Assembly: GCA_964016885.1 (NCBI GenBank)
Contig: CAXHJY010000949.1
Location: forward strand, 1 to 64,000
Source of the DNA: Eledone cirrhosa
Taxonomy: Eukaryota
Reading direction: 5' to 3'
Length of the DNA stretch: 64,000 nt
Position 1 is the first letter of the stretch; every line of letters begins with the position of its first letter. Under the pieces are notes generated by a model, which saw only the letters and a list, made by a program, of their open reading frames with translations, did not search any database and was not told where the DNA came from. The translations under genes and the position numbers were made by a program. Positions 3,348 to 61,296 of the stretch are shown in pieces.

Positions 3348-5718
3348 ATCATCATCATCATCATCATCATCATCAGGTTTAGCGTCCGTGTTCCACGCTT
3401 GCATGGGTTTGGACGGGGGTTTTCCCACTTGAGGCAAGAGTGGTTGTCTTGCTCGCATAGGACTGTCTGGCGGGTTTTCTACAGTTGGATGCCCTTCCTA
3501 ACACCAACCACATTTACAGTGTGGGGCTGGGAGGTTTTTACCGTGTTGCCTACACGGCCACATTACAGCGTGGACTGTCTGGCGGGTTTTCTACAGCTGG
3601 ATGCCCTTCCTAACACCAACCACATTTACAGTGTGGGGCTGGGAGGTTTTTACTGTGTTGCCTACACGGCCACATTTACAGCGTGGACTGTGTGTTTTTT
3701 GTCGTGACACCTACACGATCTCATTTGTTTCGGCCTGGATGTTGTGGGACCAACATAACTTTACATTGAATGGGGCGGTGTGGGTGGGGTGGAGGTGGTG
3801 GGACGGGGGTGTGTTTTGATAGAGATGCCTACTGACTGTAGTAGGTTTTTACTTTGTATTTAGGTAAGGCGGGTCTTCTCTATTACTGAGTACCGCCAAA
3901 GGTCTCGGTCCAGTGACATTGTCTTGGAGAGGTGTAAGCGTGTGAGGTCGGAATTTATCAGCTCGTCCTATGTTTTTCTGGGTCTGCCTACTCCGTGGCT
4001 ACCGTCTATCTTTATTGCCCTGCACTTTGTTATACAGCTGTCGTCTTTCATGCGCATCACGTGACCGTACCAACGTAGCCTTCTCTCGAGTAAACAACAT
4101 CTGATCCCTCTTATTTCTAATTTTTTCCTTAGTTCGTTTATGCTTTGCCGTTCACGTATATTACTATTGCACATCCAGCGGAGCATGCAAGCTTCGTTCC
4201 TCTCTAGTCTGCGTATATCCTCTGCACACAATGCCCAGGTCTCACTGCCATGCAGCATTGCTGTTCGTATGCAGGCATCGTATAACCTGCCTTTCATTTT
4301 TAGGGAGAACCCTCTAGCGGCTAATAGTGGTATAAGCTCTCTGAACTTTTTCCATCCAGTTCTGACTCTAGCTACTGTACTTTCAGAGCACCCTCCCCCA
4401 CTGCTGATTTTGTCACCCAGATAACGGAAGCTGTCCACTATTTCTATAGAACCCTCTGCGCAGTTGAAGGAGCTAGTATTTTGTGGGCACTTGCTGCTAC
4501 TTATTGCACCAGAGCACCGGCCACATGTAAAATCTATGTTCTTAGTTAGCTTACCTGTGATCCCACTACATTTTTTATGCACCCATACTTTGCATTTGGG
4601 ACATAAAATGGAGTTTCTACCTACGCCTTTCCTACACACTGAGCATGGCCATTTCCAAGATGGGACCGCCGCCTTATTTTCTTTCCTACAAACTAGAACT
4701 TTTGTCTTAGCCAGGTTAATTTTAAGGCCTTTTGATTCTAGGCCGTGCTTCCATGTTTGGAATTTCTTCTCTAGTTCGGTCATTGATTCAGCTATGAGCG
4801 TTAGATCATCTGCGTATAGGAGTTCCCATGGGCAGCCGGTCTTGAACTCCTCTGTTATAGCCTGAGGGCAATAATAAATAGTAGGGGGCTAAGAACAGAG
4901 CCCTGATGGACACCAACTTTTACGCTAAACTCTTCACTATATTCGTTGTTAATTCTAACCTTACTGACTGTTTCTTTATACATGGCTTGTATAGCTCTCA
5001 CAAGCCATTCGTCAACACCTAGTTTTCTAAGAGACCACCAGATAATGGAACGGGGGACTCTGTCGAAGGCTTTCTCCAAGTCGACGAAAGCTAAGTATAG
5101 GGGTTTACTTTTAGCTAGGTACTTCTCCTGTAGTTGTCGTACAATGAAAAGAGCGTCTGTGGTACTTTTGCCTGACACAAACCCGAACTGCATTTCATCT
5201 AGATCAATTCTCTCTCTGATTAGTTGCGCTATTACTTTTTCCGTGACCTTCATGACCTGGTCGATTAATTTAATGCCTCTATAGTTACTCCTATCTAGGG
5301 CATCTCCTTTTCCCTTATAGCAGTTAACGATGATGCTGCTACGCCATTCCTTCGGAACAACCCCATTCTGTACGACTTGGTTAACTATCCGGGTGACCAT
5401 GGTGTGTCCCACCGAACCAGATGCCTTCAGCATCTCAGCAACTATTTCCGAAGGCCCAGCCGCCTTACCCGTCTTCATATCTTTGATTGCCTTACTTATT
5501 ATACTACCTTCAACTAACACTGCTGGTCCCTCTATTGGATCGATCTGGGGGAGACTGTCTTTCTCCCATTTGTTCTCCTCATTTAGAAGCCTTTCGTAGT
5601 GACACTTCCAAGCTACCTTCTTATCAGCGTCGGTGATGGCAAGTATGCCATCATCGTTAAGTACACACTTCTCCCCGACAATATCACGGTTTTCCTTGAC
5701 ACATTGCCTGGCAATCCT
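3348..5718 (-). mobile_element. RTE-clade LINE copy 1, 5'-truncated (RT, PHD, 3' UTR)
   Basis: ORFs 4855-5520 and 3968-4783 nearly identical to the 16624-19893 protein ([22 protein letters not shown]); frameshift near 4860; TGG>TAG at 3968-3970; (GAT)n tail. Confidence 0.96.
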
Positions 5719-5759
5719 ATATATATATATGTATGTATGTATATATATATATATGTATG

Positions 5760-5790
<31 letters not shown>

Positions 5791-6007
5791 ATATATATAT
5801 ATGTATGTATGTATATATATATATATGTATGTATATATATATATATATATATGTATGTATATATATATATATATATATCTATGTATATATATATATATAT
5901 ATATGTATGTATATATGTATGTATGTATATATATATATATGTATGTATATATATATATATATATATATCTATGTATATATATATATATATATATGTATGT
6001 ATATATG

Positions 6008-6052
<45 letters not shown>

Positions 6053-6060
6053 GTATATAT
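5719..6060. repeat. (TA)n/(TATG)n microsatellite
   Basis: Direct reading. Confidence 0.95.
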
Positions 6061-6696
6061 TTAGAAACACACAGATACATGCGGACACACACATATATGC
6101 ATGAATGCATCCGCACCCAACTGAGTTAAGGGTGCCAACTTCACCGATGTTGCTCAATGAATGACCGGGACAGACCAATTCAGTTGAACTAGACTGAACC
6201 AGTATCAGAGTTAAAAATACATTATGAAGAGAGAAGAAGCATTTAGATATAATTAGTAATAAAATGTATCATACCTAAACTGCTCCTAAATTCCTCGACT
6301 ACGTAGTTTCGTGGCATAAACAAAAACAATATATCATAAAGATATAGAGTCCTTGCGAGGTCTGCCGACTTATCAAGAGGATACCTCATTTTACTAGTCT
6401 CAAGAACGCGTCTACACGACGTGAGAAAGAATCCCAAAAGGCGGAGGGGGAGATAGTCACGCGATATAACGGTCGAGAAACAGAGCTAAGCCTCTTATAA
6501 CCCCGAAGAAAATACCACGGAGGCGGAGGGGGTATTTATATCGAGGCCGTAGAAGAGGTGGTGAAGAAGGCGAGAAGTATGAGTAATGGAAGCTTTCCAG
6601 CTGTCCCCACACTTCAAAGATTGCTCGACCAGAGGGAGTTATTAACAATATATTTAGAAACACACAGATACATGCGGACACACACATATATGCATG
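6055..6696 (-). mobile_element. 593-bp terminally redundant HHR-containing unit (retrozyme/Penelope pLTR-like)
   Basis: 49-bp direct repeat 6055-6103 / 6648-6696; internal HHR on minus strand; followed by a 60-bp inverted duplication. Confidence 0.6.
6292..6381 (-). ncRNA. Hammerhead ribozyme motif with U3-A8 core and enlarged stem II
   Basis: Minus strand: TCCTC TTGATAA GTCGGCA-(~47 nt)-TGCCAC GAAAC TACGTA GTC GAGGA. 5-bp stem I, palindromic stem III ACTACGTAGT, GUC triplet. Confidence 0.7.
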
Positions 6697-9321: not shown

Positions 9322-12300
9322 TCATCATCATCATCATCATCATCATCGTTTAACGTCCCTGTTCCACACTTGCATGGGTTTGGGCGGGGGTTTTCCCACT
9401 TGAGGCAAGAGTGGTTGTCTTGCTCGCATAGGACTGTCTGGCGGGTTTTCTACAGCTGGATGCCCTTCCTAACACCAACCACATTTACAGTGTGGGACTG
9501 GGAGGTTTTTACCGTGTTGCTTACACGGCCACATTACAGCGTGGACTGTGTGTTTTTTTGTCGTGACACCTACACGATCTCGTTTGTTTCGGCCTGGATG
9601 TTGTGGTACCAACATAACTTTGCATTGAAGGGGGCGGTGTGGATGGGGTGGAACGGGGGTGTATTTTGTTAGAGATGCCTACTGAGTAGTAGGTTTTACT
9701 TTGTATTTAGGTAAGGCGGGTCTTCTCTGTTACTGAGTACCGCCAAAGGTCTTGGTCAAGTGACATTGTCTTGGAGAGGTGTAAGTGTGAGGTCGGAATT
9801 TATCAGCTCGTCTCAGGTTTTCCTGGGTCTGCCTACTCCATGGCTACCATCTATCTTTATTGCCCTGCACTTTGTTATACAGTTGTCGTCTTTCATGCGA
9901 ATCACGTGACCATACCAACGTAGCCTTCTCTCGAGTAAACAACATCTGATCCCTCTTATTTCTAATTTTTTCCTTAGTTCGTTTATGCTTTGCCGTTCAC
10001 GTATATTACTATTACACATCCAGCGGAGCATGCAAGCTTCGTTCCTCTCTAGTCTGCGTATATCCTCTGCACACAATGCCCAGCTCTCACTGCCATGCAA
10101 CATTGCTGTTCGTATGCAGGCATCATACAACCTGCCTTTCATTTTTAAGGAGAACCCTTTAGCGGCTAATAGTTGTATAAGCTCTCTGAACTTTTTCCAT
10201 CCAGTTCTGACTCTAGCTACTGTACTTTCAGAGCACCCTCCCCCACTGCTGATTTTGTCACCCAGGTAACGGAAGCTGTCCACTATTTCTATAGAACCCT
10301 CTGCGCAATTGAAAGAGTTAGTATTTGTGGGCACTTGCTGCTACTTATTGCACCAGAGCACCGGCCACATGTAAAATCTGTGTTCTTAGTTAGCTTACCT
10401 GTGATCCCACTACATCTTTTATGCACCCATACTTTGCATTTGGGACATAAAATGGAGTTTCTACCTACGCCTTTCCTACACACTGAGCATGGCCATTTCC
10501 CGGAGGGGACCGGCGCCTTATTTTCTTTCCTACAAACTAGAACTTTTGTCTTAGCCAGGTTAATTTTAAGGCCTTTTGATTCTAGGCCGTGCTTCCATGT
10601 TTGGAATTTCTTCTCTAGCTCGGCCATTGATTCAGCTATGAGCGTTAGATCATCTGCGTATAGCAGTTCCCATGGGCAGCCGGTCTTGAACTCCTCTGTT
10701 ATAGCCTGAAGGGCAATAATAAATAGTAGGGGCCTAAGAACAGAGCCCTGATGGATACCAACTTTTACGCTAAACTCTTCACTATATTCGTTGTTAATTC
10801 TAACCTTGCTGACTGTTTCTTTATACATGGCTTGTATGGCTTTCACAAGCCATTCGTCAACACCTAGTTTTCTAAGAGCCCACCAGATAATGGAACGGGG
10901 GGATTCTGTCGAAGGCTTTCTCCAAGTCGACAAAAGCTAAGTATAGGGGTTTACTTTTAGCTAGGTACTTCTGTAGTTGTCGTACAACGAAAAGAGCGTC
11001 TGTGGTACTTTTGCCTGACACAAACCCGAACTGCATTTCATCTAGATCAATTCTCTCTCTGATTAGTTGCGCTATTACTTTTTCCGTGACCTTCATGACC
11101 TGGTCGATTAATTTAATGCCTCTAAAGTTACTCCTATCTAGGGCGTCTCCTTTACCCTTGTAACAGTTAACGATGATGCTGCTACGCCAGTCCTTCGGAA
11201 GAACCCCATTCTGTATGACTTGGTTGACTATCCAGGTGGCCATGGTGTGTCCCACCGTACCGGAGGCTTTCAGCATCTCAGCAACTATTTCCGAAGGCCC
11301 AGCCGCCTTACCCGTCTTCATATCTTTGATTGCCTTACTTATTATACTACCTTCGACTCATACTGCTGGTCCCTCTATTGGATCGATGTGGGGGAGACTG
11401 TCTTTCTCCCATTTATTCTCCTCATTTAGTAGCCTGTCGTAATGACACTTCCAAGCTACCTTCTTATCAGCGTCAGTGATGGCAAGTACGCCATCATCGT
11501 TAAGTACACACTTCTCCCCGACAATATCACGGTTTTCCTTGACACATTGCCTAGCAATCCTGAACACCTCACGTTTTTGGTCCTCGCATTGTAGAACATG
11601 CTTGAACTTTCTTTCCTCAGTTTCCCTTCTTGCGAAGTACACTTGTCTCCTAGCTTCCCTCCTGGCCACTTGATAGTCTTCTCTACTTCCCCCATCCCGC
11701 CATGCTTTCCAAGCCTGCTTTTTGGCCTTGATTGACCCCTCTACCTTACTGTTCCACCACCACGTTACTCTCCTCCTGCCTACAGGCCTGCTCCAGCCAC
11801 AGACTTCGTCTGCCGCCATCAGCAGGTTTGCTTTCAGGAATTCCCACTGTTCCTCTACCTTGTACGACTCTAATTGCTCTTCCTTACTGTCGAAAGCATC
11901 AATTAATATGCTTTGAAATTTATTTCTGGCTGTGGGATCCTTTAGCGTCCATATTTTCCTCCTGAGGATAGTCCTCTTCTGCTGTCTAGTACGTCTCGTC
12001 CTGACTATGAGTACGCTAATTATCAGTCTATGTTGGGAGGTGCATTCTTCATGGGGGAGGGATTTAGTGTTAACAACAGACACTCTGTCACGTCTTCTGG
12101 TAAGGATATAATCTACCTGGCTGGTATGTTCTCCTGATCTGTAGGTGATCAAGTGATTGTCTCGTTTTTTGAAGTTAGTGTTACAGATAGTTAGGTTGTT
12201 CGCATCACAGAATTCCAGGATTCTGGAGCCTTCCTCGTTTCTAGTACCAAACCCATAGCCTCCGTGGATTCCGTCATAGCCGTCACAATGTTGTCCAACG

Positions 12301-12614
12301 TGACCATTTAGGTCGCCAGCAATAATTATATAGTCACTGTCGGTTATTTGGGAGGTAGTGAGCATCAGTGTCTCATAGAATCTGTCTTTTATAGTGCTGG
12401 GCAGTCCGGATTGGGGCGCGTATGCAGATATTACTGTCACAGTAGTTCTGTTTAGAACAAGTCTTATTTTAATTATTCTGTCATTCACTCTATTTACATC
12501 TATTGTCTTATCCACCCATTTTTCTGCTAACATGATTCCTACCCCACCTATCCCATCGCCATTCCCCACCCAGAAAAGCTTATAGCAACGTTTTTTACCC
12601 ACAATGAATCTAGC
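9322..12614 (-). mobile_element. RTE-clade LINE copy 2, near full-length, disrupted
   Basis: ORFs 11358-12602 (APE: SAYAPQ, AGDLNGHVG), 10872-11321, 10289-10933 (YADDL, PHD) and 9813-10334, separated by stops and frameshifts. Confidence 0.96.
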
Positions 12615-12661
12615 ATATATATATGTATTTATATATATTTATATATATATATAAATTATGA

Positions 12662-15600
12662 AATTAAATTATGACCAAAAATTTTTTCTCGATTCTTCTC
12701 TCCATTCGAACCCATTCATTCAATCACTTCTATGTCCTAAATTCACACTATATCATATTTTCACCATTATATATCATATCTTTTCTCTAAAAATCATATT
12801 TTCCCTATCACCGCATTTTCTCTATCGTAATTTCTTAAACAAAACAAATCTTGTATTTTCGTTTATTGTTAAATCATGCCCAAAATACGGCGATCTTATC
12901 TTAAACCTTACATTCTCGCTATCACTATTATATATTCCTTTAAATATAATTTGTTAAACTTGCTAAGTTTTACGCAAATCTTCGAGTACCTATTTAAACT
13001 TTTAACCTCTGCTCCATCCCATATTCTACCCCCTACCCATTCATCATGATGGTTCCTGCCCCCCCCCCCCTCCCTCTCTATACATATAAGATAAAACCCT
13101 ACCAAAATTAATCAAAATCGCCAACTCGCTATTTCTGGGATGGCTGTTCCCTTCGGTATAAAGTAACGTTCAAATTTTTCTCGATTCTTCTCTCCATTCG
13201 AACCCATTCATTCAATCACTTCTATGTCCTAATTTCACACTATATCATATTTTCACCATCCTATATCATATCTTTTCTCTAAAAATCATATTTCCCCTAT
13301 CACCGCATTTTCTCTACCGTATTTTCTTAAACAAAACAAATCTTGTATTTTCGTTTATTGTTAAATTATGCCCAAAAATTTTTTTCTCGATTCTTCTCTC
13401 CATTCGAACCCATTCATTCAATCACTTCTATGTCCTAAATTCACACTATATCATATTTTCACCATTATATATCATATCTTTTCTCTAAAAATCATATTTT
13501 CCCTATCACCGCATTTTCTCTATCGTAATTTCTTAAACAAAACAAATCTTGTATTTTCGTTTATTGTTAAATCATGCCCAAAATACGGCGATCTTATCTT
13601 AAACCTTACATTCTCGCTATCACTATTATATATTCCTTTAAATATAATTTGTTAAACTTGCTAAGTTTTACGCAAATCTTCGAGTACCTATTTAAACTTT
13701 TAACCTCTGCTCCATCCCATATTCTACCCCCTACCCATTCATCATGATGGTTCCTGCCCCCCCCCCCCCTCCCTCTCTATACATATAAGATAAAACCCTA
13801 CCAAAATTAATCAAAATCGCCAACTCGCTATTTCTGGGATGGCTGTTCCCTTCGGTATAAAGTAACGTTCAAATTTTTCTCGATTCTTCTCTCCATTCGA
13901 ACCCATTCATTCAATCACTTCTATGTCCTAATTTCACACTATATCATATTTTCACCATCCTATATCATATCTTTTCTCTAAAAATCATATTTCCCCTATC
14001 ACCGCATTTTCTCTACCGTATTTTCTTAAACAAAACAAATCTTGTATTTTCGTTTATTGTTAAATTATGCCCAAAAATTTTTTCTCGATTCTTCTCTCCA
14101 TTCGAACCCATTCATTCAATCACTTCTATGTCCTAAATTCACACTATATCATATTTTCACCATTATATATCATATCTTTTCTCTAAAAATCATATTTTCC
14201 CTATCACCGCATTTTCTCTATCGTAATTTCTTAAACAAAACAAATCTTGTATTTTCGTTTATTGTTAAATCATGCCCAAAATACGGCGATCTTATCTTAA
14301 ACCTTACATTCTCGCTATCACTATTATATATTCCTTTAAATATAATTTGTTAAACTTGCTAAGTTTTACGCAAATCTTCGAGTACCTATTTAAACTTTTA
14401 ACCTCTGCTCCATCCCATATTCTACCCCCTACCCATTCATCATGATGGTTCCTGCCCCCCCCCCCCCCTCCCTCTCTATACATATAAGATAAAACCCTAC
14501 CAAAATTAATCAAAATCGCCAACTCGCTATTTCTGGGATGGCTGTTCCCTTCGGTATAAAGTAACGTTCAAATTTTTCTCGATTCTTCTCTCCATTCGAA
14601 CCCATTCATTCAATCACTTCTATGTCCTAATTTCACACTATATCATATTTTCACCATCCTATATCATATCTTTTCTCTAAAAATCATATTTCCCCTATCA
14701 CCGCATTTTCTCTACCGTATTTTCTTAAACAAAACAAATCTTGTATTTTCGTTTATTGTTAAATTATGCCCAAAAATTTTTTCTCGATTCTTCTCTCCAT
14801 TCGAACCCATTCATTCAATCACTTCTATGTCCTAAATTCACACTATATCATATTTTCACCATTATATATCATATCTTTTCTCTAAAAATCATATTTTCCC
14901 TATCACCGCATTTTCTCTATCGTAATTTCTTAAACAAAACAAATCTTGTATTTTCGTTTATTGTTAAATCATGCCCAAAATACGGCGATCTTATCTTAAA
15001 CCTTACATTCTCGCTATCACTATTATATATTCCTTTAAATATAATTTGTTAAACTTGCTAAGTTTTACGCAAATCTTCGAGTACCTATTTAAACTTTTAA
15101 CCTCTGCTCCATCCCATATTCTACCCCCTACCCATTCATCATGATGGTTCCTGCCCCCCCCCCCTCCCTCTCTATACATATAAGATAAAACCCTACCAAA
15201 ATTAATCAAAATCGCCAACTCGCTATTTCTGGGATGGCTGTTCCCTTCGGTATAAAGTAACGTTCAAATTTTTCTCGATTCTTCTCTCCATTCGAACCCA
15301 TTCATTCAATCACTTCTATGTCCTAATTTCACACTATATCATATTTTCACCATCCTATATCATATCTTTTCTCTAAAAATCATATTTCCCCTATCACCGC
15401 ATTTTCTCTACCGTATTTTCTTAAACAAAACAAATCTTGTATTTTCGTTTATTGTTAAATTATGCCCAAAAATTTTTTCTCGATTCTTCTCTCCATTCGA
15501 ACCCATTCATTCAATCACTTCTATGTCCTAAATTCACACTATATCATATTTTCACCATTATATATCATATCTTTTCTCTAAAAATCATATTTTCCCTATC

Positions 15601-16531
15601 ACCGCATTTTCTCTATCGTATTTTCTTAAACAAAACAAATCTTGTATTTTCGTTTATTGTTAAATTATGCCCAAAAATTTTTTCTCGATTCTTCTCTCCA
15701 TTCGAACCCATTCATTCAATCACTTCTATGTCCTAAATTCACACTATATCATATTTTCACCATTATATATCATATCTTTTCTCTAAAAATCATATTTTCC
15801 CTATCACCGCATTTTCTCTATCGTATTTTCTTAAACAAAACAAATCTTGTATTTTCGTTTATTGTTAAATTATGCCCAAAAATTTTTTCTCGATTCTTCT
15901 CTCCATTCGAACCCATTCATTCAATCACTTCTATGTCCTAAATTCACACTATATCATATTTTCACCATTATATATCATATCTTTTCTCTAAAAATCATAT
16001 TTTCCCTATCACCGCATTTTCTCTATCGTAATTTCTTAAACAAAACAAATCTTGTATTTTCGTTTATTGTTAAATTATGCCCAAAAATTTTTTCTCGATT
16101 CTTCTCTCCATTCGAACCCATTCATTCAATCACTTCTATGTCCTAAATTCACACTATATCATATTTTCACCATTATATATCATATCTTTTCTCTAAAAAT
16201 CATATTTTCCCTATCACCGCATTTTCTCTATCGTATTTTCTTAAACAAAACAAATCTTGTATTTTCGTTTATTGTTAAATTATGCCCAAAAATTTTTTCT
16301 CGATTCTTCTCTCCATTCGAACCCATTCATTCAATCACTTCTATGTCCTAAATTCACACTATATCATATTTTCACCATTATATATCATATCTTTTCTCTA
16401 AAAATCATATTTTCCCTATCACCGCATTTTCTCTATCGTAATTTCTTAAACAAAACAAATCTTGTATTTTCGTTTATTGTTAAATCATGCCCAAAATACG
16501 GCGATCTTATCTTAAACCTTACATTCTCGCT
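12662..16531. repeat. Tandem array of 205-bp monomers with ~696-699-bp higher-order units
   Basis: Repeated ORF starts spaced 205 bp (15437, 15642, 15847, 16052, 16257) and 699/696 bp (14042, 14741, 15437); ~285-bp B block with variable poly-C in four copies. Confidence 0.96.
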
Positions 16532-19500
16532 AACAACCCATCATCCCTCCCTCCCGCCCCCACACACCACCATTATTACGTGGACCAATCATAAGTCAGA
16601 GGCCCATACTATCGCTTAACTGGTTGCTTTTCGATATGATGGATGGACTACGGAATTCTGGAGAGTTGAAGAGAGAAAAATGTGGACGCTCAGCGACAAT
16701 GCCAAAGATAAAGCCAAATTCACCTCGTGGACGAGAATGCAAGCACTCCTCCTTGTTTCGGCCCAGGATGGCTAACATAACCCCATCCCCCCTCCCCCCC
16801 TCCACCCCCCCCCCCCCCGCGCCCCACCGCTCCCACCCTCCAAACGCAATCCAAAACTTCAGAGTTGGTACCATGAATGTAGGCACCTTAAAGGGTCGCT
16901 CTAACGAGGTTGTAGAAATGCTTGAACGTAAGGAGGTCGATGTTTGTTGTATTCAAGAGACCAGGTGGAGGGGAGGGTCGGCTAGATTCATCGTGGGTAA
17001 AGAGCGATGCTATAAGCTTTTCTGGGTGGGAAATGACAATGGGTTGGGTGGGGTAGGAATCATGGTAGCAGAAAAGTGGGCAGATAAGATAATAGACGTA
17101 AATAGAGTGAACGACAGAATAATTAAAATAAGACTTGTCCTCAATAAAACTACGGTGACAGTAATATCTGCGTACGCACCCCAATCCGGACTGCCCCGCG
17201 CTATAAAAGACAGATTCTACGAGACACTGATGCTCGCTACCTCCCAAATAACCGACAGTGACTATATAGTTATTGCAGGCGACCTAAATGGTCACGTTGG
17301 ACAACATTGTGACGGCTATGACGGAATCCATGGAGACTATGGGTTCGGTACTAGAAATGAGGAAGGCTCCAGAATCCTGGAATTCTGCGACGCAAATAAC
17401 TTAACTATCTGTAACACTAACTTCAAAAAACGAGACAATCACTTGATCACCTATAGATCGGGGGAACACACAAGCCAGGTAGATTATATCCTTACCAGAA
17501 GACGTGACAGAGTGTCTGTTGTTAACACTAAATCCCACCCCCATGAAGAATTCACCTCCCAACATAGACTGATAATTAGCGACCTCATAGTCAGGACGAG
17601 ACGTACTAGACAGCGAAAGAAGACTATCCTCAGGAGAAAAATATGGAAGCTAAAGGACCCCATAGCCAGAAATAAATTTCAAAGCAAATTACTTGACGCT
17701 TTCGACAGTAAGGAAGAGCAATTAGAGTCGTATAATATAGAGGAACAGTGGGAATTCCTGAGAGCAAACCTGCTGACGGCGGCAGACGAAGTCTGTGGCT
17801 GGAGCAGGCCTGTAGGTAGGAGGAGAGTAACATGGTGGTGGAACAGTAAGGTGGAGGAGTCAATTAAGGCCAAAAAGCAGGCTTGGAAAGTATGGCGGGA
17901 TGGGGGAAGTAGAGAAGACTATCAAGTGGCCAGGAGGGAAGCTAGGAGACAAGTGTACTTCGCAAGAAGGGAAGCAGAGGAAAGAAAGTTCAAGCATGTT
18001 CTACAACGTGAGGACCAAAAACGTGAGGTGTTCAGGATTGCCAGGCAATGTGTCAAGGAAAACCGTGATATTGTCGGGGAGAAGTGTGTACTTAACGATG
18101 ATGGCATACTTGCCATCACCGACGCTGATAAGAAGGTAGCTTGGAAGTGTCACTACGAAAGGCTTCTAAATGAGGAGAACAAATGGGAGAAAGACAGTCT
18201 CCCCCAGATCGATCCAATAGAGGGACCAGCAGTGTTAGTTGAAGGTAGTATAATAAGTAAGGCAATCAAAGATATGAAGACGGGTAAGGCGGCTGGGCCT
18301 TCGGAAATAGTTGCTGAGATGCTGAAGGCATCTGGTTCGGTGGGACACACCATGGTCACCCGGATAGTTAACCAAGTCGTACAGAATGGGGTTGTTCCGA
18401 AGGAATGGCGTAGCAGCATCATCGTTAACTGCTATAAGGGAAAAGGAGATGCCCTAGATAGGAGTAACTATAGAGGCATTAAATTAATCGACCAGGTCAT
18501 GAAGGTCACGGAAAAAGTAATAGCGCAACTAATCAGAGAGAGAATTGATCTAGATGAAATGCAGTTCGGGTTTGTGTCAGGCAAAAGTACCACAGACGCT
18601 CTTTTCATTGTACGACAACTACAGGAGAAGTACCTAGCTAAAAGTAAACCCCTATACTTAGCTTTTGTCGACTTGGAGAAAGCCTTCGACAGAGTCCCCC
18701 GTTCCATTATCTGGTGGTCTCTTAGAAAACTAGGTGTTGACGAATGGCTTGTGAGAGCTATACAAGCCATGTATAAAGAAACAGTCAGTAAGGTTAGAAT
18801 TAACAACGAATATAGTGAAGAGTTTAGCGTAAAAGTTGGTGTCCATCAGGGCTCTGTACTTAGCCCCCTACTATTTATTATTGCCCTTCAGGCTATAACA
18901 GAGGAGTTCAAGACCGGCTGCCCATGGGAACTCCTATACGCAGATGATCTAACGCTCATAGCTGAATCAATGACCGAACTAGAGAAGAAATTCCAAACGT
19001 GGAAGCACGGCCTAGAATCAAAAGGCCTTAAAATTAACCTGGCTAAGACTAAAGTTCTAGTTTGTAGGAAAGAAAATAAGGCGGCGGTCCCATCGGGGAA
19101 ATGGCCATGCTCAGTGTGTAGGAAAGGCGTAGGTAGAAACTCCATTTTATGTCCCAAATGCAAAGTATGGGTGCATAAAAGATGTAGTGGGATCACAGGT
19201 AAGCTAACTAAGAACATAGATTTTACATGTGGCCGGTGCTCTGGTGCAATAAGTAGCAGCAAGTGCCCACAAAATACTAGCTCCTTCAACTGCGCAGAGG
19301 GTTCTATAGAAATAGTGGACAGCTTCCGTTATCTGGGTGACAAAATCAGCAGTGGGGGAGGGTGCTCTGAAAGTACAGTAGCTAGAGTCAGAACTGGATG
19401 GAAAAAGTTCAGAGAGCTTATACCACTATTAGCCGCTAGAGGGTTCTCCCTAAAAATGAAAGGCAGGTTATACGATGCCTGCATACGAACAGCAATGCTG

Positions 19501-20379
19501 CATGGCAGTGAGACCTGGGCATTGTGTGCAGAGGATATACGCAGACTAGAGAGGAACGAAGCTTGCATGCTCCGCTGGATGTGCAATAGTAATATACGTG
19601 AACGGCAAAGCATAAACGAACTAAGGAAAAAATTAGAAATAAGAGGGATCAGATGTTGTTTACTCGAGAGAAGGCTACGTTGGTACGGTCACGTGATGCG
19701 CATGAAAGACGACAGCTGTATAACAAAGTGCAGGGCAATAAAGATAGACGGTAGCCACGGAGTAGGCAGACCCAGAAAAACATGGGACGAGCTGATAAAT
19801 TCCGACCTCACACGCTTACACCTCTCCAAGACAATGTCACTGGACCGAGACCTTTGGCGGTACTCAGTAATAGAGAAGACCCGCCTTACCTAAATACAAA
19901 GTAAAAACCTACTACAGTCAGTAGGCACCTCTATCAAAACACACCCCACCCACACCGCCCCTTTCAATGTAAAGTTATGTTGGTCCCACAACATCCAGGC
20001 CGAAACAAATGAGATCGTGTAGGTGTCACGACAAAAAACACACAGTCCACGCTGTAAATGTGGCCGTGTAGGCAACACGGTAAAAACCTCCCAGCCCCAC
20101 ACTGTAAATATGGTTGGTGTTAGGAAGGGCATCCAGCTGTAGAAAACCCGCCAGACAGTCCACGCTGTAATGTGGCCGTGTAGGCAACACGGTAAAAACC
20201 TCCCAGCCCCACACTGTAAATGTGGTTGGTGTTAGGAAGGGCATCCAACTGTAGAAAACCCGCCAGACAGTCCTATGCGAGCAAGACAACCACTCTTGCC
20301 TCAAGTGGGAAAACCCCCGTCCAAACCCATGCAAGCGTGGAACACGGACGCTAAACCTGATGATGATGATGATGATGAT
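16532..20379 (+). mobile_element. RTE-clade LINE copy 3, apparently intact
   Basis: Single uninterrupted ORF, 3' UTR with ~122-bp internal duplication, (GAT)n tail; exact 5' boundary uncertain. Confidence 0.95.
16624..19893 (+). CDS. RTE ORF: APE endonuclease + reverse transcriptase with inserted PHD finger
   Basis: APE motifs TMNVGTL, IQETRW, SAYAP, GDLNGHVG, DYIL, SQHRL; RT motifs [24 protein letters not shown]; C4HC3 at 19108-19239; C-terminal GRPRKTW. True start is probably ATG 16636, 16699 or 16768. Confidence 0.96.
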   Translation: MLFDMMDGLRNSGELKREKCGRSATMPKIKPNSPRGRECKHSSLFRPRMANITPSPLPPSTPPPPAPHRSHPPNAIQNFRVGTMNVGTLKGRSNEVVEMLERKEVDVCCIQETRWRGGSARFIVGKERCYKLFWVGNDNGLGGVGIMVAEKWADKIIDVNRVNDRIIKIRLVLNKTTVTVISAYAPQSGLPRAIKDRFYETLMLATSQITDSDYIVIAGDLNGHVGQHCDGYDGIHGDYGFGTRNEEGSRILEFCDANNLTICNTNFKKRDNHLITYRSGEHTSQVDYILTRRRDRVSVVNTKSHPHEEFTSQHRLIISDLIVRTRRTRQRKKTILRRKIWKLKDPIARNKFQSKLLDAFDSKEEQLESYNIEEQWEFLRANLLTAADEVCGWSRPVGRRRVTWWWNSKVEESIKAKKQAWKVWRDGGSREDYQVARREARRQVYFARREAEERKFKHVLQREDQKREVFRIARQCVKENRDIVGEKCVLNDDGILAITDADKKVAWKCHYERLLNEENKWEKDSLPQIDPIEGPAVLVEGSIISKAIKDMKTGKAAGPSEIVAEMLKASGSVGHTMVTRIVNQVVQNGVVPKEWRSSIIVNCYKGKGDALDRSNYRGIKLIDQVMKVTEKVIAQLIRERIDLDEMQFGFVSGKSTTDALFIVRQLQEKYLAKSKPLYLAFVDLEKAFDRVPRSIIWWSLRKLGVDEWLVRAIQAMYKETVSKVRINNEYSEEFSVKVGVHQGSVLSPLLFIIALQAITEEFKTGCPWELLYADDLTLIAESMTELEKKFQTWKHGLESKGLKINLAKTKVLVCRKENKAAVPSGKWPCSVCRKGVGRNSILCPKCKVWVHKRCSGITGKLTKNIDFTCGRCSGAISSSKCPQNTSSFNCAEGSIEIVDSFRYLGDKISSGGGCSESTVARVRTGWKKFRELIPLLAARGFSLKMKGRLYDACIRTAMLHGSETWALCAEDIRRLERNEACMLRWMCNSNIRERQSINELRKKLEIRGIRCCLLERRLRWYGHVMRMKDDSCITKCRAIKIDGSHGVGRPRKTWDELINSDLTRLHLSKTMSLDRDLWRYSVIEKTRLT

Positions 20380-21671: not shown

Positions 21672-25929
<4,258 letters not shown>

Positions 25930-26041
25930 ATAAGTTGTAATATAATGAAACGAAATTTCATTTCTCACTCTTAGTTCGGCACTTACTTAAATGTAAGTAT
26001 GTATGTATACGTACATATATGTATACAGACGTACAGTAGCA

Positions 26042-26102
<61 letters not shown>

Positions 26103-26248
26103 GTACACATATATATATGTACGTATCAGTTTAGCGAACGTTTATTATAACGCCCGCTTTGTCCGTTTGTAAACAAGCGAACAGCCTGATTTATGCCATA
26201 CGGTGTTAAGGCAACCACGTCACCTTTTTGTTCAACACTGACACAGGA

Positions 26249-26291
26249 ACGATGTACTAGTTTCAAGCTTGTTAGCTATCATCAGCACCGT
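26249..26291 (-). ncRNA. Type I hammerhead ribozyme (family A, left arm)
   Basis: Minus strand: ACGGTG CTGATGA TAGCT AACA AGCTT GAAAC TA GTA CATCGT; canonical core, palindromic ACTAGT stem III. Confidence 0.85.
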
Positions 26292-26558
26292 ATACCCTTC
26301 TGCCAGATAGTTGAACGTTCGGAAGTATATACTTTCCTTATGAAAATTAACGGCTGAGCAGCCTAATTTGCATCTCGAGTGAGTTCAGTCGGCAGGCGTA
26401 CCGAGAACGATAAGTTGTAATATAATGAAACGAAATTTCATTTCTCACACTTACTTAAATGTGAGTATGTATGTATACGTACATACATATATGTATACAG
26501 ACGGGCGCTATAATAAACGTTCGCTAAACTGATACGTACATATATATGTGTGTACCTG

Positions 26559-26629
<71 letters not shown>

Positions 26630-26867
26630 GCATGCTACTCTACGTCTGTATACATATATCTATGTACGTATACATACATACTTACATTTAAGTAAGTGCC
26701 GTACTAAGAGTGAGAAATGAAATTTCGTTTCATTATATTACAACTTATCGTTCTCGGTACGCCTGGCCGACTGAACTCACTCGAGATGCAAATTAGGCTG
26801 CTCAGCCGTTAATTTTCATAAGGAAAGTATATACTTTCGAACGTTCAACTATCTGGCAGAAGGGTAT

Positions 26868-26910
26868 ACGGTGCTGATGATAGCTAACAAGCTTGAAACT
26901 AGTACATCGT
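26868..26910 (+). ncRNA. Type I hammerhead ribozyme (family A, right arm)
   Basis: ACGGTG CTGATGA TAGCTAACAAGCTT GAAAC TA GTA CATCGT. Confidence 0.85.
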
Positions 26911-27059
26911 TCCTGTGTCAGTGTTGAACAAAAAGGTGACGTGGTTGCCTTAACACCGTATGGCATAAATCAGGCTGTTCGCTTGTTTACAAACGGACAA
27001 AGCGGGCGTTATAATAAACGTTCGCTAAACTGATACGTACATATATATATGTGTACCTG

Positions 27060-27104
<45 letters not shown>

Positions 27105-27108
<4 letters not shown>

Positions 27109-27210
27109 TTAATATAGATGAGATTCTCATCTATATTAAAACTTTTATACTCTGCTATGTATTGAGTACCTTACTTACCGTGGTTACCTCCGATTCAACC
27201 CGGAATAACG
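27105..27210 (+). repeat. Perfect 19-bp-arm palindrome plus tail related to the hairpin-tail family
   Basis: AGTTTTAATATAGATGAGA-T-TCTCATCTATATTAAAACT, then CTCTGCTATGTATTGAGTAC. Confidence 0.75.
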
Positions 27211-27354
27211 TATATATATATATATATATATATATAGGCATGCTACTGTACGTCTGTATACATATATGTATGTACGTATACATACATACTTACATATATA
27301 TTTATATATTTATATATATATATGTATATATATATATTTATATATATGTATATT

Positions 27355-27383
<29 letters not shown>

Positions 27384-27386
<3 letters not shown>

Positions 27387-27894
27387 AAAACAAATAACGA
27401 AACGAAATTAAATTTTGTTTCGTTTGTAACTCACTTTTGTATGACTGACGCTTAAACAATTAAGTTAAGAATGTACATCCACATATGTATACTGAAATAC
27501 TAGTATGCATATGAATACACACACGTGTACATATGTAGATGTACCGAGTTTTTCACTGGTCACTTTACTGTGAGTGTCCAGCTATTCTGTATGTAAACAC
27601 ACAGACAAACCGGTTTTTAGAGTCATACTGGTTTTTGAGGAAACACCTTTCCTCTATTCTCCAGAAAGCCAGACAAGGAATATTGGACTAGTTTCGATGT
27701 TGTTACATCTCATCAGCAATATTTACCCATCTTCCGGCCTTTCTAGAGAATCGTAAAAGCACATATCGTTATATGCTTTTTCTATGAAAATTAGTAGTGG
27801 GCAGACTAATTTGCATAGAGCGTGAGTACGTACCGGTTCAACGGAGACGATAAAAACAAATAACGAAACGAAATTAAATTTTGTTTCGTTTGTA
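27384..27894 (-). mobile_element. HHR family B: 466-bp unit with 45-bp terminal redundancy
   Basis: ATAAAAACAAATAACGAAACGAAATTAAATTTTGTTTCGTTTGTA at 27384-27428 and 27850-27894; internal HHR. Confidence 0.78.
27679..27723 (-). ncRNA. Type I hammerhead ribozyme (family B)
   Basis: Minus strand: AATATTG CTGATGA GATGT AACA ACATC GAAAC TA GTC CAATATT; perfect 7-bp stem I and 5-bp stem II, GUC triplet. Confidence 0.9.
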
Positions 27895-28500: not shown

Positions 28501-28888
28501 TTATATATATATATGTATATATATATATGTATATATATATATTTATTTATATATATATATGTATATATATATATTTATATATATGTAGGAGGTGAGTTTT
28601 ATTGTAGTACAATAAAGCAATGCAGATATCGGATAAGAAGCACTCTACAGTTTGTGGGACTGGAGTATGCATAATATAAGATCAAAAGATGGTTAAAGGA
28701 GTTCAATATATTTTATTATGCGCATTTCAAAAACAAACATCATCAAACAATAATATTTGTGTTTTCATCAGATAAAACAGGAGAACATGATATGAAGGCT
28801 AAAAAAACACTTGTTGATAGTGCAGTTTTAAATCAACATATATATATTTATATATATATATGTATATTTATATATATATATGTATATT

Positions 28889-56626: not shown

Positions 56627-59452
56627 ATCATCATCATCATCATCGTTTAACATCCATATTCCACGCTTGCATGTGTTTGGACGGGAGTTTTCCCACCTGT
56701 GGCAAGAGTGGTTGTCTTGCTCGCATAGGACTGTCTGGCGGGTTTACTACGGCTGGATGCCCTTCCTAACACCAACCACATTTACAGTGTGGAACTGGGA
56801 GGTTTTTACCGTGTTACCTACACGGCCACATTACAGCGTGGACTGTGTTTTTTTTGTCGTGACACCTACACGACCTCATTTGTTTCGGGCTGGATGTTGT
56901 GACACCAACATAACTTTACATTGAAAGGGGTGGTGTGGATGGGGTGGGGGTAGTGGGACGGGGGTGTATTTTGTTAGAGGTACCTACTGACTGTAGTAGG
57001 TTTCACTTTGTACTTAGGTAAGGCGGGTCTTCTCTATTACTGTGTAGCGCCAAAGCTCTCGGTCCAGTGACATTGTCTTGGAGAGGTGTAAGTGTGTGAG
57101 GTCGGAATTTATCAAGTCGTCCCAGGTTTTTCTGGGTCTGCCTACTCCGTGGCTACCGTCTATTTTTATTGCCCTGCACTTTTTTATACAGCTGTCGTCT
57201 TTCATACGCATCGCGTGACCATACCAACGTAGTCTTCTCTCGAGTAAACAACATCTGATCCCTCTTATTTCTAATTTCTCCCTTAGTACGTTTATGCTTT
57301 GCCGTTCACGTATGTTATTATTACACATCCAGCGGAGCATGCAAGCTTCGTTTCTCTCCAGTCTGCGTATATCCTCTGCACACAATGCCCAGGTCTCACT
57401 GCCATGTAACATTGCTGTTCGTATGCAGGCATCATACAGCCTGCCTTTCATTTTTAGAGAGAACCCTTTAGCGGCCAATAGTGGTATAAGCTCTCTGAAC
57501 TTTTTCCATCCCGTTCTGACTCTAGCTACTGTACTTTCAGAGCACCCTCCCCCACTGCTGATTTTATCACCCAGGTAACGGAAGCTGTCCACTATTTCTA
57601 TAGAACCATCTGTGCAATGGAACGAGTTAGTATTCTGTGGGCACTTGCTGCTACTTATTGCACCAGAGCACCGGCCACATATAAAGTCTATATTCTTAGA
57701 TAGTTTACCTGTGATCCCACTACATCTTTTATGTACCCATACTTTGCATTTGGGACATAAAATGGAGTTTCTACCTACTCCTTTCCTACACACTGAGCAT
57801 GGCCATTTCCCAGATGGGACCGGTGCCCTATTTTCCTTCCTACAAACTAGAACTTTAGTCTTAGACAAGTTAACTTTAAGGCCTTTTGATTCTAGGCCAT
57901 GCTTCCATGTTTGGAATTTCTTCTCTAGTTCAGCCATTGATTCAGATATGAGCGTTAGATCATCTGCATATAGGAGTTCCCATGGGCAGCCGGTCTTGAA
58001 CTCCTCTGTTATTGCCTGAAGGGCAATAATAAATAGTAGGGAGCTAAGGACGGAGCCCTGATGAACACCAACTTTTACGCTAAACTCTTCACTATATTCG
58101 TTGTTAATTCTAACCTTGCTGACTGTTTCTTTATACATGGCTTGTATAGCTCTCACAAGCCATTCATCAACACCTAGTTTTCTAAGGGCCCACCAGATAA
58201 TCGAGCGGGGTACTCTGTCAAAGGCTTTCTCCAAGTTAACAAAAGCTAAGTATAGGGGTTTACTTTTAGCTAGGTACTTCTCCTGTAGTTGTCGTACAAT
58301 GAAAAGAGCGTCTGTTGTACTTTTACCTGACACAAACCCGAACTGCATTTCGTCTAGATCAATTCGCTCTCTGATTAGTTGCGCTATTACTTTTTCTGTG
58401 ACCTTCATGACCTGGTCAATTAATTTAATGTCTCTATAATTTCCCCTATCTAGGGCATCACCTTTACCCTTGTAGCAGTTAATGATGATGATGCTGCGCC
58501 AGTCCTTCGGAACGACCCCATTCTGTATGACTTGATTTACTATCCGGGTGACCATAGTGTGCCCACCGTTCCAGATGCTTTCAGCATTTCAGCAACTATT
58601 TCCGAAGGCCCGGCCGCCTTGCCCGTCTTCATGTCTTTGATCGCCTTACTTATTATACTACCTTCAACTTGCACTGCTGGTCCCTCTATTGGGTCGATGT
58701 GGGGGAGACTGTCTTTCTCCCAATTATTCTCCTCATTTAGTAGCCTTTCGTAGTGACACTTCCAAGCTACCTTCTTATCAGCGTCAGTGATGGCAAGTAC
58801 ACCATCATCATTTAGGACACACTTCTCCCCGACAATATCAATGTTTTCCTTGACACATTGCCTAGCAATCCTGAACACCTCACGTTTTTGGTCATCGCGT
58901 TGTAGAACATGCTTGAACTTTCTTTCCTCTGCTTCCCTTCTTGCGAAGTACACTTGTCTCCTAGCTTCCCTCCTGGCCACTTGATAGTCTTCTCTGCTTC
59001 CCCCATCCCGCCATGCTTTCCAAGCCTGCTTTTTGGCCTTGATTGACCTCTCCACCTTACTGTTCCACCACCAAGTTACTCTCCTCCTGCCTATAGGCCT
59101 GCTCCAGCCACAGGTTTCATCTGTCGCCTTCAGCAGGTTAGCTTTCAGGAATTCCCACTGTTCCTCTATATTGTACGACTCTAATTGCTCTTCCTTACTA
59201 TCAAAAGCATCAAGTAATATGCTTTTAAATTTATTTTTGGCTATGGGGTCCTTTAATTTCCATGTTTTTCTCCTGAGGATAGTCATCTTCTGTTGTCGAA
59301 TACGTCTCATCCTGACTATGAGGTCGCTAATTATGAGTCTATGTTGAGACGTGCATTCTTCATGGGGGAGGGATTTAGTGTTTACAACAATCACTCTGTC
59401 ACGTCTCCTGGTAAGGATATAATCTACCTGGCTTGTGTGTTCCCCCGATCTA
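56627..59452 (-). mobile_element. RTE-clade LINE copy 5, 5'-truncated, more diverged
   Basis: ORFs 58540-59526 (part) and 57014-58555 with a frameshift at ~58555; RT and PHD motifs present. Confidence 0.96.
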
Positions 59453-59664: not shown

Positions 59665-61296
59665 CATACATACATTCATACATACATACATGATGATGGC
59701 TGCCCCCTCGTTATCGAGTATGGCCATTGCATAAGAAAAAAAAATATATATATATATTATATATATATATATATATATACACACACATACATACATATAT
59801 ACATATACATACATTAATAACAATAATAATAATAACGACAACAAAAGCAATAATGATATACATATACATACACGCACACACATAAACATATCTATACACA
59901 CACACGATAGCAATTAACAGCGCTGCGATCGAATGTGGCTTTTTAGCTCAGCCAATGATCTAAATTGTCTTGCACAGAGTCGGCAACAAAAACATTCACT
60001 GGGAATAGCCGGCTGTGGTTGGAGTTCGTGTACTTTTGCATGTCGCTTGAGCCCTCCTGCTGATTTACATTCTCTACCACATGCTTGGCAAGCATGATGA
60101 GTAGCATCTCCAACAGCAGCCTGGTAGTCAACCACTGGTCTTACTTTATGACTGCGAAGATGACTTTCGAGTCCAGCTTTGCTTAGGCAGAGTCTCGCAC
60201 AGACGCTGCATGTCAGCACCATAGAAGGACCCTCGCCGTCTGGAAATGCAACAGCAATGCCCTTCCTCACATCCCGCTTTACTTTCTCGTATGCGATTCG
60301 AGATGCCTCAAAGGCAACTTTTCCCTCATATACAGTCTTTCTCCATTTATTACGATCAGCAGCAATATTTTCCCATGTATCAGCAGAGATGTTAGCATCT
60401 TTCAAAGAGGCTTTCAAGGAATCCTTATACCTTTTTTTTTGGTTTATGTGGCAGTCGTTTTCCTTTAACTAACTCTCCATAAAAGAGTTGTTTTAGTATT
60501 CTAGAATCCTTCATCCTGGCAAGATGACCACTCCAACGGAGTCGTTACTTAAGCACAAGAGCTTCTATACTGTCACACATAGACCTTTCCAAAATCTCGA
60601 CATCACTGATGTGGTCCCTCCAGTGAACGCCATGGATCCGTCTGAGACACATCTGATGGAAACATACATACATGCATGCATGCATACATGGTGGCTGCCA
60701 ACTCGTTTTCGAGTACGGCCACCACTTTATATCCATGTAGGAGAACGCCTACCGATGCGCTGAACGAGTGTGACTTTTTAGTCCAGCCAGCGTATTGAAA
60801 ACTCTGGTACAAACACTACACTTGTGACAATTATTGACACATAGTGCTGGGCCCATGGTACCATGTGAGGACAAGTGCAGAGAGATCTCCAGATATAAAG
60901 CAATGCCTGTGCCGTGAAGCTTTTATAGTGAGCAAAGGCACTGCACAAAGCCAGTCCCACTCTCTTAACCAAGATGATATTTACCAAAAAGAAGAACAAG
61001 TCAACATCATTGGATACCATCAGGGTTGCAGGTGTTATATCAGAGTTTTCCTTCTCCTAGAATTCTGCCTTGACAAAGGCTAAGGGGTCATCTCTCCCGG
61101 TGATTTTGGACGGCCATTGACTCTTAAGAGCTCCTTAGCCCTTTGACAGGTTTTGTTTTTAGTCCTGCAGGATGTCCAAAGTCACCCTCCTCACCAAGAA
61201 ACCTTGGTGGGGTTGCCAGTTTAGTCGCCAACGTCCCGACCATGAGACAGGTTGTACTGGGATACATGTTACCAGTAGCACCAACTGGTGACCTGA
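59665..61296 (-). mobile_element. Second RTE family (BovB-like), fragmented, C-terminus with three C2H2 fingers
   Basis: FHQMCLRRI..WRDHISDVEIL, RLRWSGHLARM, QLFYGEL, RYKDSLKASLK; ORF 59914-60417; 3' hairpin with (ATGT)n tail at ~59665-59730 and again at ~60663-60725; putative 5' leader 61000-61296 is less certain. Confidence 0.78.

Follow-up and report, generated by a model that had tools for sequence, protein, structure and literature searches.

A candidate U6-type promoter motif with a TATA box upstream of the hammerhead ribozyme in retrozymes of Eledone cirrhosa

Two diverged families of hammerhead repeats, A and B, occur in a 64,000-nucleotide stretch of Eledone cirrhosa DNA (the window), and in both of them the ribozyme is preceded by the same octamer-containing block and by a second arm that can pair with it. 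This raises the question of what the block is for, a site in the DNA or a signal in the RNA, and of whether the combination with the ribozyme constitutes a system of its own, since a sequence-only reading had proposed an old, selected and undescribed architecture. The reading favoured here, which we regard as probable, is that A and B are retrozymes in which the block and a TATA box drive transcription from just upstream of the ribozyme, and that the resulting RNA is reinserted by the reverse transcriptase/endonuclease of Penelope-like elements (PLEs).

All the blocks that had been named were located in the window, in A as well as in B and in the order claimed, and the similar unit lengths, 480 bp in A and 466 bp in B, agree with the repeated landmarks (Table 1). 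The motif ATGCAAATTAG starts at 26786, 26373 and 27816, and the second arm, TAATTTTCATA, at 26810, 26349 and 27793. The minus-strand A array, whose 3' end runs through ...ACAACTTA into (TA)n, is 5'-truncated at an inversion junction, at about 26502, where it is joined 5'-to-5' to a plus-strand copy that is itself split at about 27101-27215 by another short repeat. The B insertion is bounded by (TA)n, its 3' end reading ...GTTTTTA into TA. Exact matches to the dyad pattern number at least 17,589 in the 3.0-Gb genome, against 0 for its reversed control, and the top genome matches of A and B are 98-100% identical. The monomers are short, non-coding and low in GC (466-500 bp), and are organised as ORF-free arrays of tens of units, with a same-strand tandem arrangement in 7 of 20 A loci and in 18 of 20 B loci.

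Table 1. Positions of the family A and family B features in the window
Feature	Position	Strand	Remarks
Family A array	25931..26503	-	one unit (480 bp) and part of another
Inverted A partner copy	26502..27298	+	5'-truncated; TA runs inside
A: AT-rich hairpin and TTA	26716..26747	+	genomic copies end here in (TA)n
A: ATGCAAATTAG	26786..26796	+	match to host U6/U6atac/MRP proximal motif
A: TCAG	26802..26805	+	26 bp 5' of TATA, like host U1/U2/U5 promoters
A: second dyad arm	26810..26820	+	variable; TAATATGCATA in older A; missing from most related families
A: TATA box	26828..26833	+	42 bp from motif start
A: extended type I hammerhead	26843..26929	+	core 26874-26904
A, second copy	26255..26373	-	motif 26373-26363, hammerhead core 26285-26255
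Family B insertion	27385..27893	-	one 466-bp unit and about 45 bp of direct repeat
B: (T)ATGCAAATTAG	27806..27816	-	host-like motif
B: second arm	27783..27793	-	pairs with 10 of 11 motif bases
B: weak TATA-like TATAAC	27768..27773	-	43 bp past motif
B: extended type I hammerhead	27656..27751	-	core 27716-27686

Because tandem non-coding units with a type I hammerhead define the class of non-LTR retrozymes (PMC7229834; preprint 10.64898/2026.07.22.740005), A and B almost certainly belong to it, and the idea of an undescribed system is not supported. In fact, they resemble the metazoan non-LTR retrozymes (Cervera and de la Pena 2020, PMC7229834; Li et al.) in consisting of non-coding tandem type I hammerhead units, and also in their low GC, their thousands of copies, their self-paired monomer and their co-occurrence with PLEs (PMC7229834; preprint), while their units, of 466-500 bp, are longer than the 170-400 nt reported for the class in the same two sources. 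No promoter of the element itself is described in the available text of either, the word being used in PMC7229834 only for T7 and in preprint 10.64898/2026.07.22.740005 not at all (0 uses).

The two ribozymes fold as type I hammerheads with the full core and three helices, helix III having 2 bp within the palindrome ACUAGU; loop II reads UAA(C/U)AA, and helix I is bulged and extended. Stem I of A is formed by 26868-26873 and 26905-26910, and the cuts are predicted after GUA at 26904 in A and after GUC at 27686 in B. As had been claimed, the stems differ in sequence and yet stay paired. In an alignment of 13 representatives, nine of them A or B variants, stem I and its extension covary: both sides change in 17 of 23 pairs, and pairing was found in 85.7% of cells, a level reached by 0 of 500 shuffles and compared with 34-44% in slid controls, although the test structure was derived from A and B themselves and so favours the score. 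The identity of ACTAGT in the two families is what would be expected of a palindromic helix III, since dimer cleavage makes use of it (PMC4209133), and in newt hammerheads the stem I extension is needed together with loop II (PMC6155905). At gathering cut-offs Rfam gave no match in the window; below them, B matched Hammerhead_HH9 (E 3.5e-7) and A did so weakly (E 0.71). Matches to miRNAs at a relaxed Rfam E-value were rejected, as they correspond to TA repeats.

The upstream block was then compared with the promoters of the host's own small-RNA genes. The host motif TATG(C/G)(A/T)AATNAG and a TATA box, at -77 to -79 and at about -30 respectively, were found in five of the six host promoter types expected to be used by Pol III (three U6, U6atac and RNase MRP, RNase P being the exception). 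In the two best U6 genes the motif is at -76 and -77 and the TATA box at -30; among 15 U6 loci, the exact octamer occurs in 2, ATGCTAAT stands at -78 in 5 array copies, the motif is displaced by an insertion in 6 array copies and 2 have no proximal motif. In the U6 array, about 190 bp separate the promoter elements from the gene in 6 of 11 copies (L201, L202, L204-L207). The best of 10 U6atac loci carries ATGGAAATTAG at -77, with one mismatch, the motif being absent from the other nine, which are retrocopy-like. The RNase MRP promoter, held out and scored with a consensus fixed beforehand, matches at 12 of 12 positions (0 mismatches) at -78. The host variants ATGCTAAT and ATGGAAAT occupy the same promoter position, and the chance of a match with at most one mismatch is about 0.005 per promoter as estimated from shuffles, a figure that is post hoc for the first four promoters. 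None of the 15 upstream regions of U1, U2 and U5 genes (5, 3 and 7, respectively) contains the motif; they share (T/C)CAG at -55 to -58 together with a TATA-like box.

Against this host consensus the window motif scores 12/12 in B and 11/12 in A (other A copies have T at -1), and when four host Pol III promoters are combined into a matrix, the 32-bp block of B ranks first of 127,938 window positions. The A block is outside the top eight window matches of the U6 matrix, and likeness to U6 beyond the motif columns is not significant (B in the upper 5%, A at 29%). The TATA box is 46-48 bp from the motif start in all five host genes, and a corresponding spacing of 47-48 bp is found in four further families described below (D, H, I and J), while the spacing is 42-43 bp in A, B, E, F and G (42 in A; 43 in B, with its weak TATA). 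Since the same motif precedes the host U6 and RNase MRP genes, A and B likely carry a built-in promoter of the host type, and it is highly probable, as a prediction from sequence, that block and TATA box form a working promoter of the snRNA class. The octamer had been put forward as an internal promoter candidate with reference to distal elements, and here the promoter part stands, in view of the match to host U6, U6atac and MRP promoters, but the position is proximal. A role of the octamer as the distal element of U2 promoters was dismissed, ATGCAAAT being absent from the six U2 loci inspected out of 12.

Host snRNA genes share a distal motif of their own, A(C/T)(C/T)TCCCTT, at -255 to -270 (L195, L196, L268-L273, L071-L074, L361); near -260, no copy within two mismatches was found in the one A array and the one B array searched. 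In U1, U2 and U5 genes, TATA-like boxes near -30 are present in addition to TCAGT near -56. The RNase P RNA gene (L361), expected to be type 3, lacks the U6-type motif upstream and has there, instead, a U1/U2-type TCAGT together with two distal motifs, and it may, to judge from these elements, be a Pol II gene in this animal.

The promoter-like pair was also used as a genome query, motif-N32-38-TATAWATA, of which the ribozyme was not part. It gave 1,221 matches against 135 in the control, this first type-3 promoter pattern being noisy because TATAWATA also fits TA microsatellites. Inspection covered 33 matches, comprising 13 of 30 extracted loci (5 duplicates and 12 copies of one TA-abutting repeat were skipped) and 20 hand-picked for diversity. 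An intact hammerhead core lay 87-108 nt downstream in 11 of the 33, several of the others having visibly decayed cores, and these 11 span seven families beyond A and B, named D-J. The motif is thus kept in at least nine hammerhead families, its identity in D-J being built into the query that found them. Tandem spacing was observed in E (499 bp) and F (462 bp) only, and H, I and J are known from one or two old copies each. In the reverse control, the motif was found in 0 of 30 loci chosen by the hammerhead-core pattern alone, many of which have PLE-type or chance cores. The count of motif-to-CTGANGA matches (32,039 against 38 in the control) was set aside as evidence, as it is dominated by A and B and takes in a high-copy unrelated repeat, probably LINE sequence. 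A further family, C (L161:9233-9856), consists of 310-bp hammerhead units, both tandem and inverted, that have an ACGCGT palindrome; the motif is absent from this family although the ribozyme fold is the same as in A and B. In family F (L238, L255, L229) the motif region is present about three times, at a spacing of about 33 bp, upstream of the TATA box. By eye, TGTTTAC recurs 3' of the hammerhead in most families (window 26984-26990 and 27599-27593, and D, F, G, I and J).

Whether the block is conserved as a DNA site or as an RNA stem could be addressed with these families. What persists is the sequence itself: pairing with the second arm reaches significance in A, in old A, in B and in E (9-10 of 11 pairs, p <= 0.004), but the arm is absent from most related families and does not reach significance in the other 9 of the 13 repeat rows (D, F, G, H, I and J included) or in the 4 host rows. 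Of the conserved octamer dyad described by the sequence-only reading, therefore, the sequence of the 5' arm was upheld, but the dyad as such holds in 4 of the 13 repeat rows only. Since the pairing arm is significant in no more than these four, the constant feature is the 5' arm with the TATA box behind it, the hairpin being secondary; in A, B and E the motif would also pair with the downstream RNA arm as a secondary constraint, and in E a compensatory change, from T-A to G-C, is found in the dyad. Among the variants listed for four sequence runs, none lies inside 26786-26796, and second-arm variants at 26814 and 26816 reach about half depth in run X1; these runs are contigs and carry neither transcript ends nor strand. 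The proposal of an internal promoter-like DNA site combined with an extended ribozyme is supported by the host promoter match and by the covariation of stem I and its extension.

The identity of blocks between A and B had been taken as the mark of an old architecture. The motif is kept across families, but several of the shared letters are recent and derived in young A. Older A copies, which are about 90% identical to each other, have a second arm reading TAATATGCAT (7,472 genome matches) and, in 15 of 15 scored, loop AATA and GG-AA-GGTATA (GGAAGGTATA) or close variants, while young A has the B-like TAATTTTCAT, loop AACA and GGGTA. At the arm, loop and GGGTA sites family G, which is related to A, looks like old A, and therefore the B-like states of young A look derived, by recombination or convergence as we infer. 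Some B copies also have loop AATA, and mosaics, with the B-like GATGGGTAAA before an A core, were seen in 9 young-A segments scored. The A and B lineages would, in this respect, exchange or converge on short blocks.

As regards mobility, A and B show the traits of mobilisation by PLEs, namely an inverted 5'-truncated partner, a fixed 3' end and a (TA)n target; PLEs are characterised by partner copies that are inverted and 5'-truncated and by a bias towards (TA)n (PMC8557442), and initiation inside the RNA has been demonstrated for one PLE (PMC11167929). Among 20 loci of each family, runs of (TA)8 or longer occur in 20 for A and 18 for B, and the two strands both carry hammerheads in 6 and 14, respectively. 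The hairpin-TTA block runs into TA or TA-like sequence in 10 of 28 distinct A contexts and 13 of 30 distinct B contexts, the rest reading on. As copies end at this block in TA, the first two blocks of the sequence-only reading would most simply be a 3'-end signal, and the hairpin-TTA of A a presumed start signal for reverse transcription. In the proposed cycle, tandem read-through would give multimers containing the promoter of the next unit, from which dimeric hammerheads, paired through the ACUAGU palindrome, would cut monomers that may circularise; read-through and cutting together would offer a route by which a promoter that normally stays outside the gene is retrotransposed. The PLE protein would then nick (TA)n and prime at the hairpin-TTA, 40-45 nt upstream of the motif, the products being arrays whose 3' ends are fixed and whose inverted partners are 5'-truncated.

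Young, intact 808-aa RT/GIY-YIG elements with a long-stem hammerhead of their own are present in the genome; the PLE label of this ORF is based on RT and GIY-YIG motifs and on Atlas neighbours with PF26215/PF01541, and Pfam and PDB sequence searches did not recognise it. At one locus (L158), a 5'-to-5' fusion at a short TGCA overlap links an A array to a 5'-truncated PLE, no upstream part of which is present elsewhere in the locus. This is the only A at a PLE 5' junction among 30 PLE loci, and it is taken as a hint. No PLE sharing the terminal or 3' sequence of A or B was found among the PLE loci examined, nor any RT and GIY-YIG ORF within A or B units in the loci examined, a survey of loci and not of the whole genome. 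The resemblance of a PLE pseudo-LTR (pLTR) to the promoter motif was, by judgement, taken as chance. The window itself contains, at 28583-28841 and with matches in both orientations, an autonomous PLE-like pseudo-LTR, 93% identical to L157 (ORF 4286-6499). It includes a third hammerhead-like motif, with its core from 28771 on the minus strand, a long stem II and a ATGCGCAT palindrome; no promoter motif was found upstream of this core.

The short repeat that interrupts the plus-strand A copy is 96-100% identical to sequence beside the hammerhead core of an abundant family (L333), and in L208 (99%) it immediately precedes a U6 retrocopy, to which it is fused. Retrocopies of U6 and U6atac lie within TA repeats or are fused to these repeats (L300, L307, L208, L302), a U6atac copy being joined 5'-to-5' to a family F element in L302:1257-1500. 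This suggests that the machinery that mobilises the retrozymes may also make snRNA retrocopies.

Elsewhere in the window, several LINE copies, which encode APE endonuclease and RT and show a PHD-finger match, lie at 16534-19893, 21908-24792, 57014-58588, 3968-4888 and 10289-12638, one LINE copy having a 1119-aa open frame. The RT ORFs of the window were rejected as partners of A and B, being unrelated pieces of such APE-type LINEs. A C2H2 zinc-finger coding stretch is found at 59914-60468 on the minus strand, and a 205-bp tandem repeat, with 699-bp higher-order blocks, at 13175-16496.

Retrozyme RNAs have been reported to be abundant in all tissues. If the block recruits the snRNA transcription machinery, transcription would start about 72-73 nt after the motif, the start being taken from host geometry (about 30 nt after the TATA box), that is, at about 26858 in A, 46 nt before the cut, and at about 27743 in B. 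In A, this start would coincide with the inner edge of the extended helix. The predicted starts lie 7-15 nt downstream of the point where the extended stem I begins, which counts against the promoter reading. As the motif-TATA spacing of A and B is 4-5 bp shorter than that of U6, the polymerase is left divided, about evenly balanced for Pol III against the rest, with a smaller though sizeable share for Pol II and a small one for the use of both. In favour of Pol III, the motif was found, among host genes, only in those of Pol III type. Copies without any run of T4 or longer from the predicted start as far as +340 number 41 of 43 in B, 45 of 49 in young A and 13 of 17 in old A, a depletion that does not reach significance in the single families (zero runs expected by shuffling with a chance of 0.19-0.35), and the first T5-T6 tract in B and old A lies at or adjoining the fixed 3' end. 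In insects, the motif-TATA spacing is held within 1-2 bp, and which polymerase is used is decided by the 3' half of the element (PMC1761439).

The same element and promoter could, nevertheless, be driven by Pol II, with a U1/U2-like core and an adjacent POU octamer, a sub-case of the favoured explanation that we consider rather doubtful. It would account for the TCAG at +16, which lies 26-27 bp before the TATA box in A, F and G as in U1, U2 and U5 (TCAG(T) about 26 bp before a TATA-like box is present in A and not in B), and for the ranks that a U1/U2 matrix gives to A (top 1.8%), old A (0.6%), E (0.5%), G (0.01%) and F (<0.01%); moreover, the T4-T7 tracts near the unit end need read-through for the promoter to be copied, and in the compact human H1 promoter both polymerases depend on the octamer beside the core (PMC7949045). 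However, the motif occurs in no host U1, U2 or U5 upstream region examined, B misfits the Pol II matrix (33%), and D and H, at 83% and 71% by that matrix, have the geometry of U6 instead. It is improbable that the block is an RNA hairpin recognised by a PLE protein or host factor, or part of a self-paired circle, with transcription reading through from outside and the U6 match incidental. The dyad found in A, old A, B and E, the compensatory change in the last of these and the strong self-pairing of the entire B monomer (z = -8.8) fit such a role, but six families keep the motif without the pairing arm, a TATA box follows at a near-fixed distance, and the host promoters are matched in orientation and position, the held-out gene included.

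A slightly smaller probability still is given to a motif that is the relic of an ancestral promoter capture, or that was spread by recombination, and is no longer functional in A and B. The off-register spacing and the weak TATA of B point that way, as do the GATGGGTAAA mosaics, in which blocks move or converge between families; against it, families that are otherwise unalignable keep the same 11 bp, and recent transcription is needed because the youngest A and B copies, in thousands, are 99-100% identical. Finally, A and B would be solo pseudo-LTRs belonging to autonomous PLEs, and not non-autonomous elements in their own right, if the PLE ORFs near several copies were taken at face value and if, as argued in preprint 10.64898/2026.07.22.740005, retrozymes come from pLTRs. 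This is very improbable, since the nearby PLEs examined have pLTRs of their own, with different, long-stem-II hammerheads, and the A and B arrays are free of ORFs and run to tens of units. Returning to the promoter reading, a wider version of it is entertained only tentatively, at less than even confidence: at least nine retrozyme families, forming one clade, would have captured a host U6-type (type 3 Pol III) promoter, made mobile through tandem units and cutting, the spacing classes of 42-43 and 47-48 bp would reflect a switch between Pol II and Pol III in one lineage, and the same bases would act as an RNA hairpin in A, B and E.

Hammerhead repeats with internal promoters have precedents. 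The promoter of newt satellite 2 includes an octamer, and that of the schistosome Sm-alpha satellite consists of tRNA-type A and B boxes, whereas families A and B have an upstream U6-type element. Newt satellite 2, a 330-bp hammerhead repeat (Coats et al. 1994), has an internal snRNA promoter for Pol II, and the hammerhead repeat Sm-alpha an internal Pol III promoter (both cited in PMC2220036). Therefore, promoter plus extended ribozyme is not, as had been supposed, without description (PMC2220036; stem I extension, PMC6155905): like A and B, newt satellite 2 is a hammerhead tandem repeat with an internal snRNA-type promoter and dimer cleavage, and it uses the helix I extension with loop II (PMC6155905). 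Unlike this reportedly Pol II-driven repeat, A and B have a motif specific to host Pol III-type genes, with a TATA box, and at least nine families are present here in one invertebrate-type genome. The pLTRs of PLEs (PMC4209133, PMC8557442, PMC11167929) share with A and B the type I hammerhead, the tandem and inverted 5'-truncated insertions and the (TA)n bias, and their initiation inside the RNA (PMC11167929) is as in the model for A and B; unlike them, A and B have no ORF, and have a full helix III and loop contacts rather than a minimal hammerhead. No sequence match of A or B to the PLE pLTRs examined was found. With type 3 Pol III promoters (U6 and H1; PMC7949045, PMC1761439) they have in common the proximal element and TATA box, and with H1 the compact octamer-core layout, but, unlike host type 3 promoters, theirs lies inside a mobile repeat, is 4-5 bp shorter in spacing and showed no host distal motif in the arrays searched.

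What is likely new here, as read from the sequence, is the U6-type promoter motif with a TATA box in retrozymes, the class itself being known. A U6-type promoter in retrozymes, or the A/B motif, was not found in the literature, the coverage of which is thin for subscription journals, old scans, supplements and repeat databases, so that an earlier description is possible; the available text of PMC2837043 and PMC10886601 holds no promoter information for such repeats, and the promoter precedents found are citations for the newt and schistosome repeats only. An 11-bp motif and a TATA box, checked against host genes, predict the start within a few bases and make retrozyme transcription testable. 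The two spacing classes offer a naturally occurring comparison for the study of polymerase choice, and, as a by-product, host U6-type promoter elements have been defined, which are useful for guide-RNA expression in this animal group. For the animal itself, sites of this kind, present in the tens of thousands, could titrate snRNA factors or act as starting points for the transcription of small RNAs.
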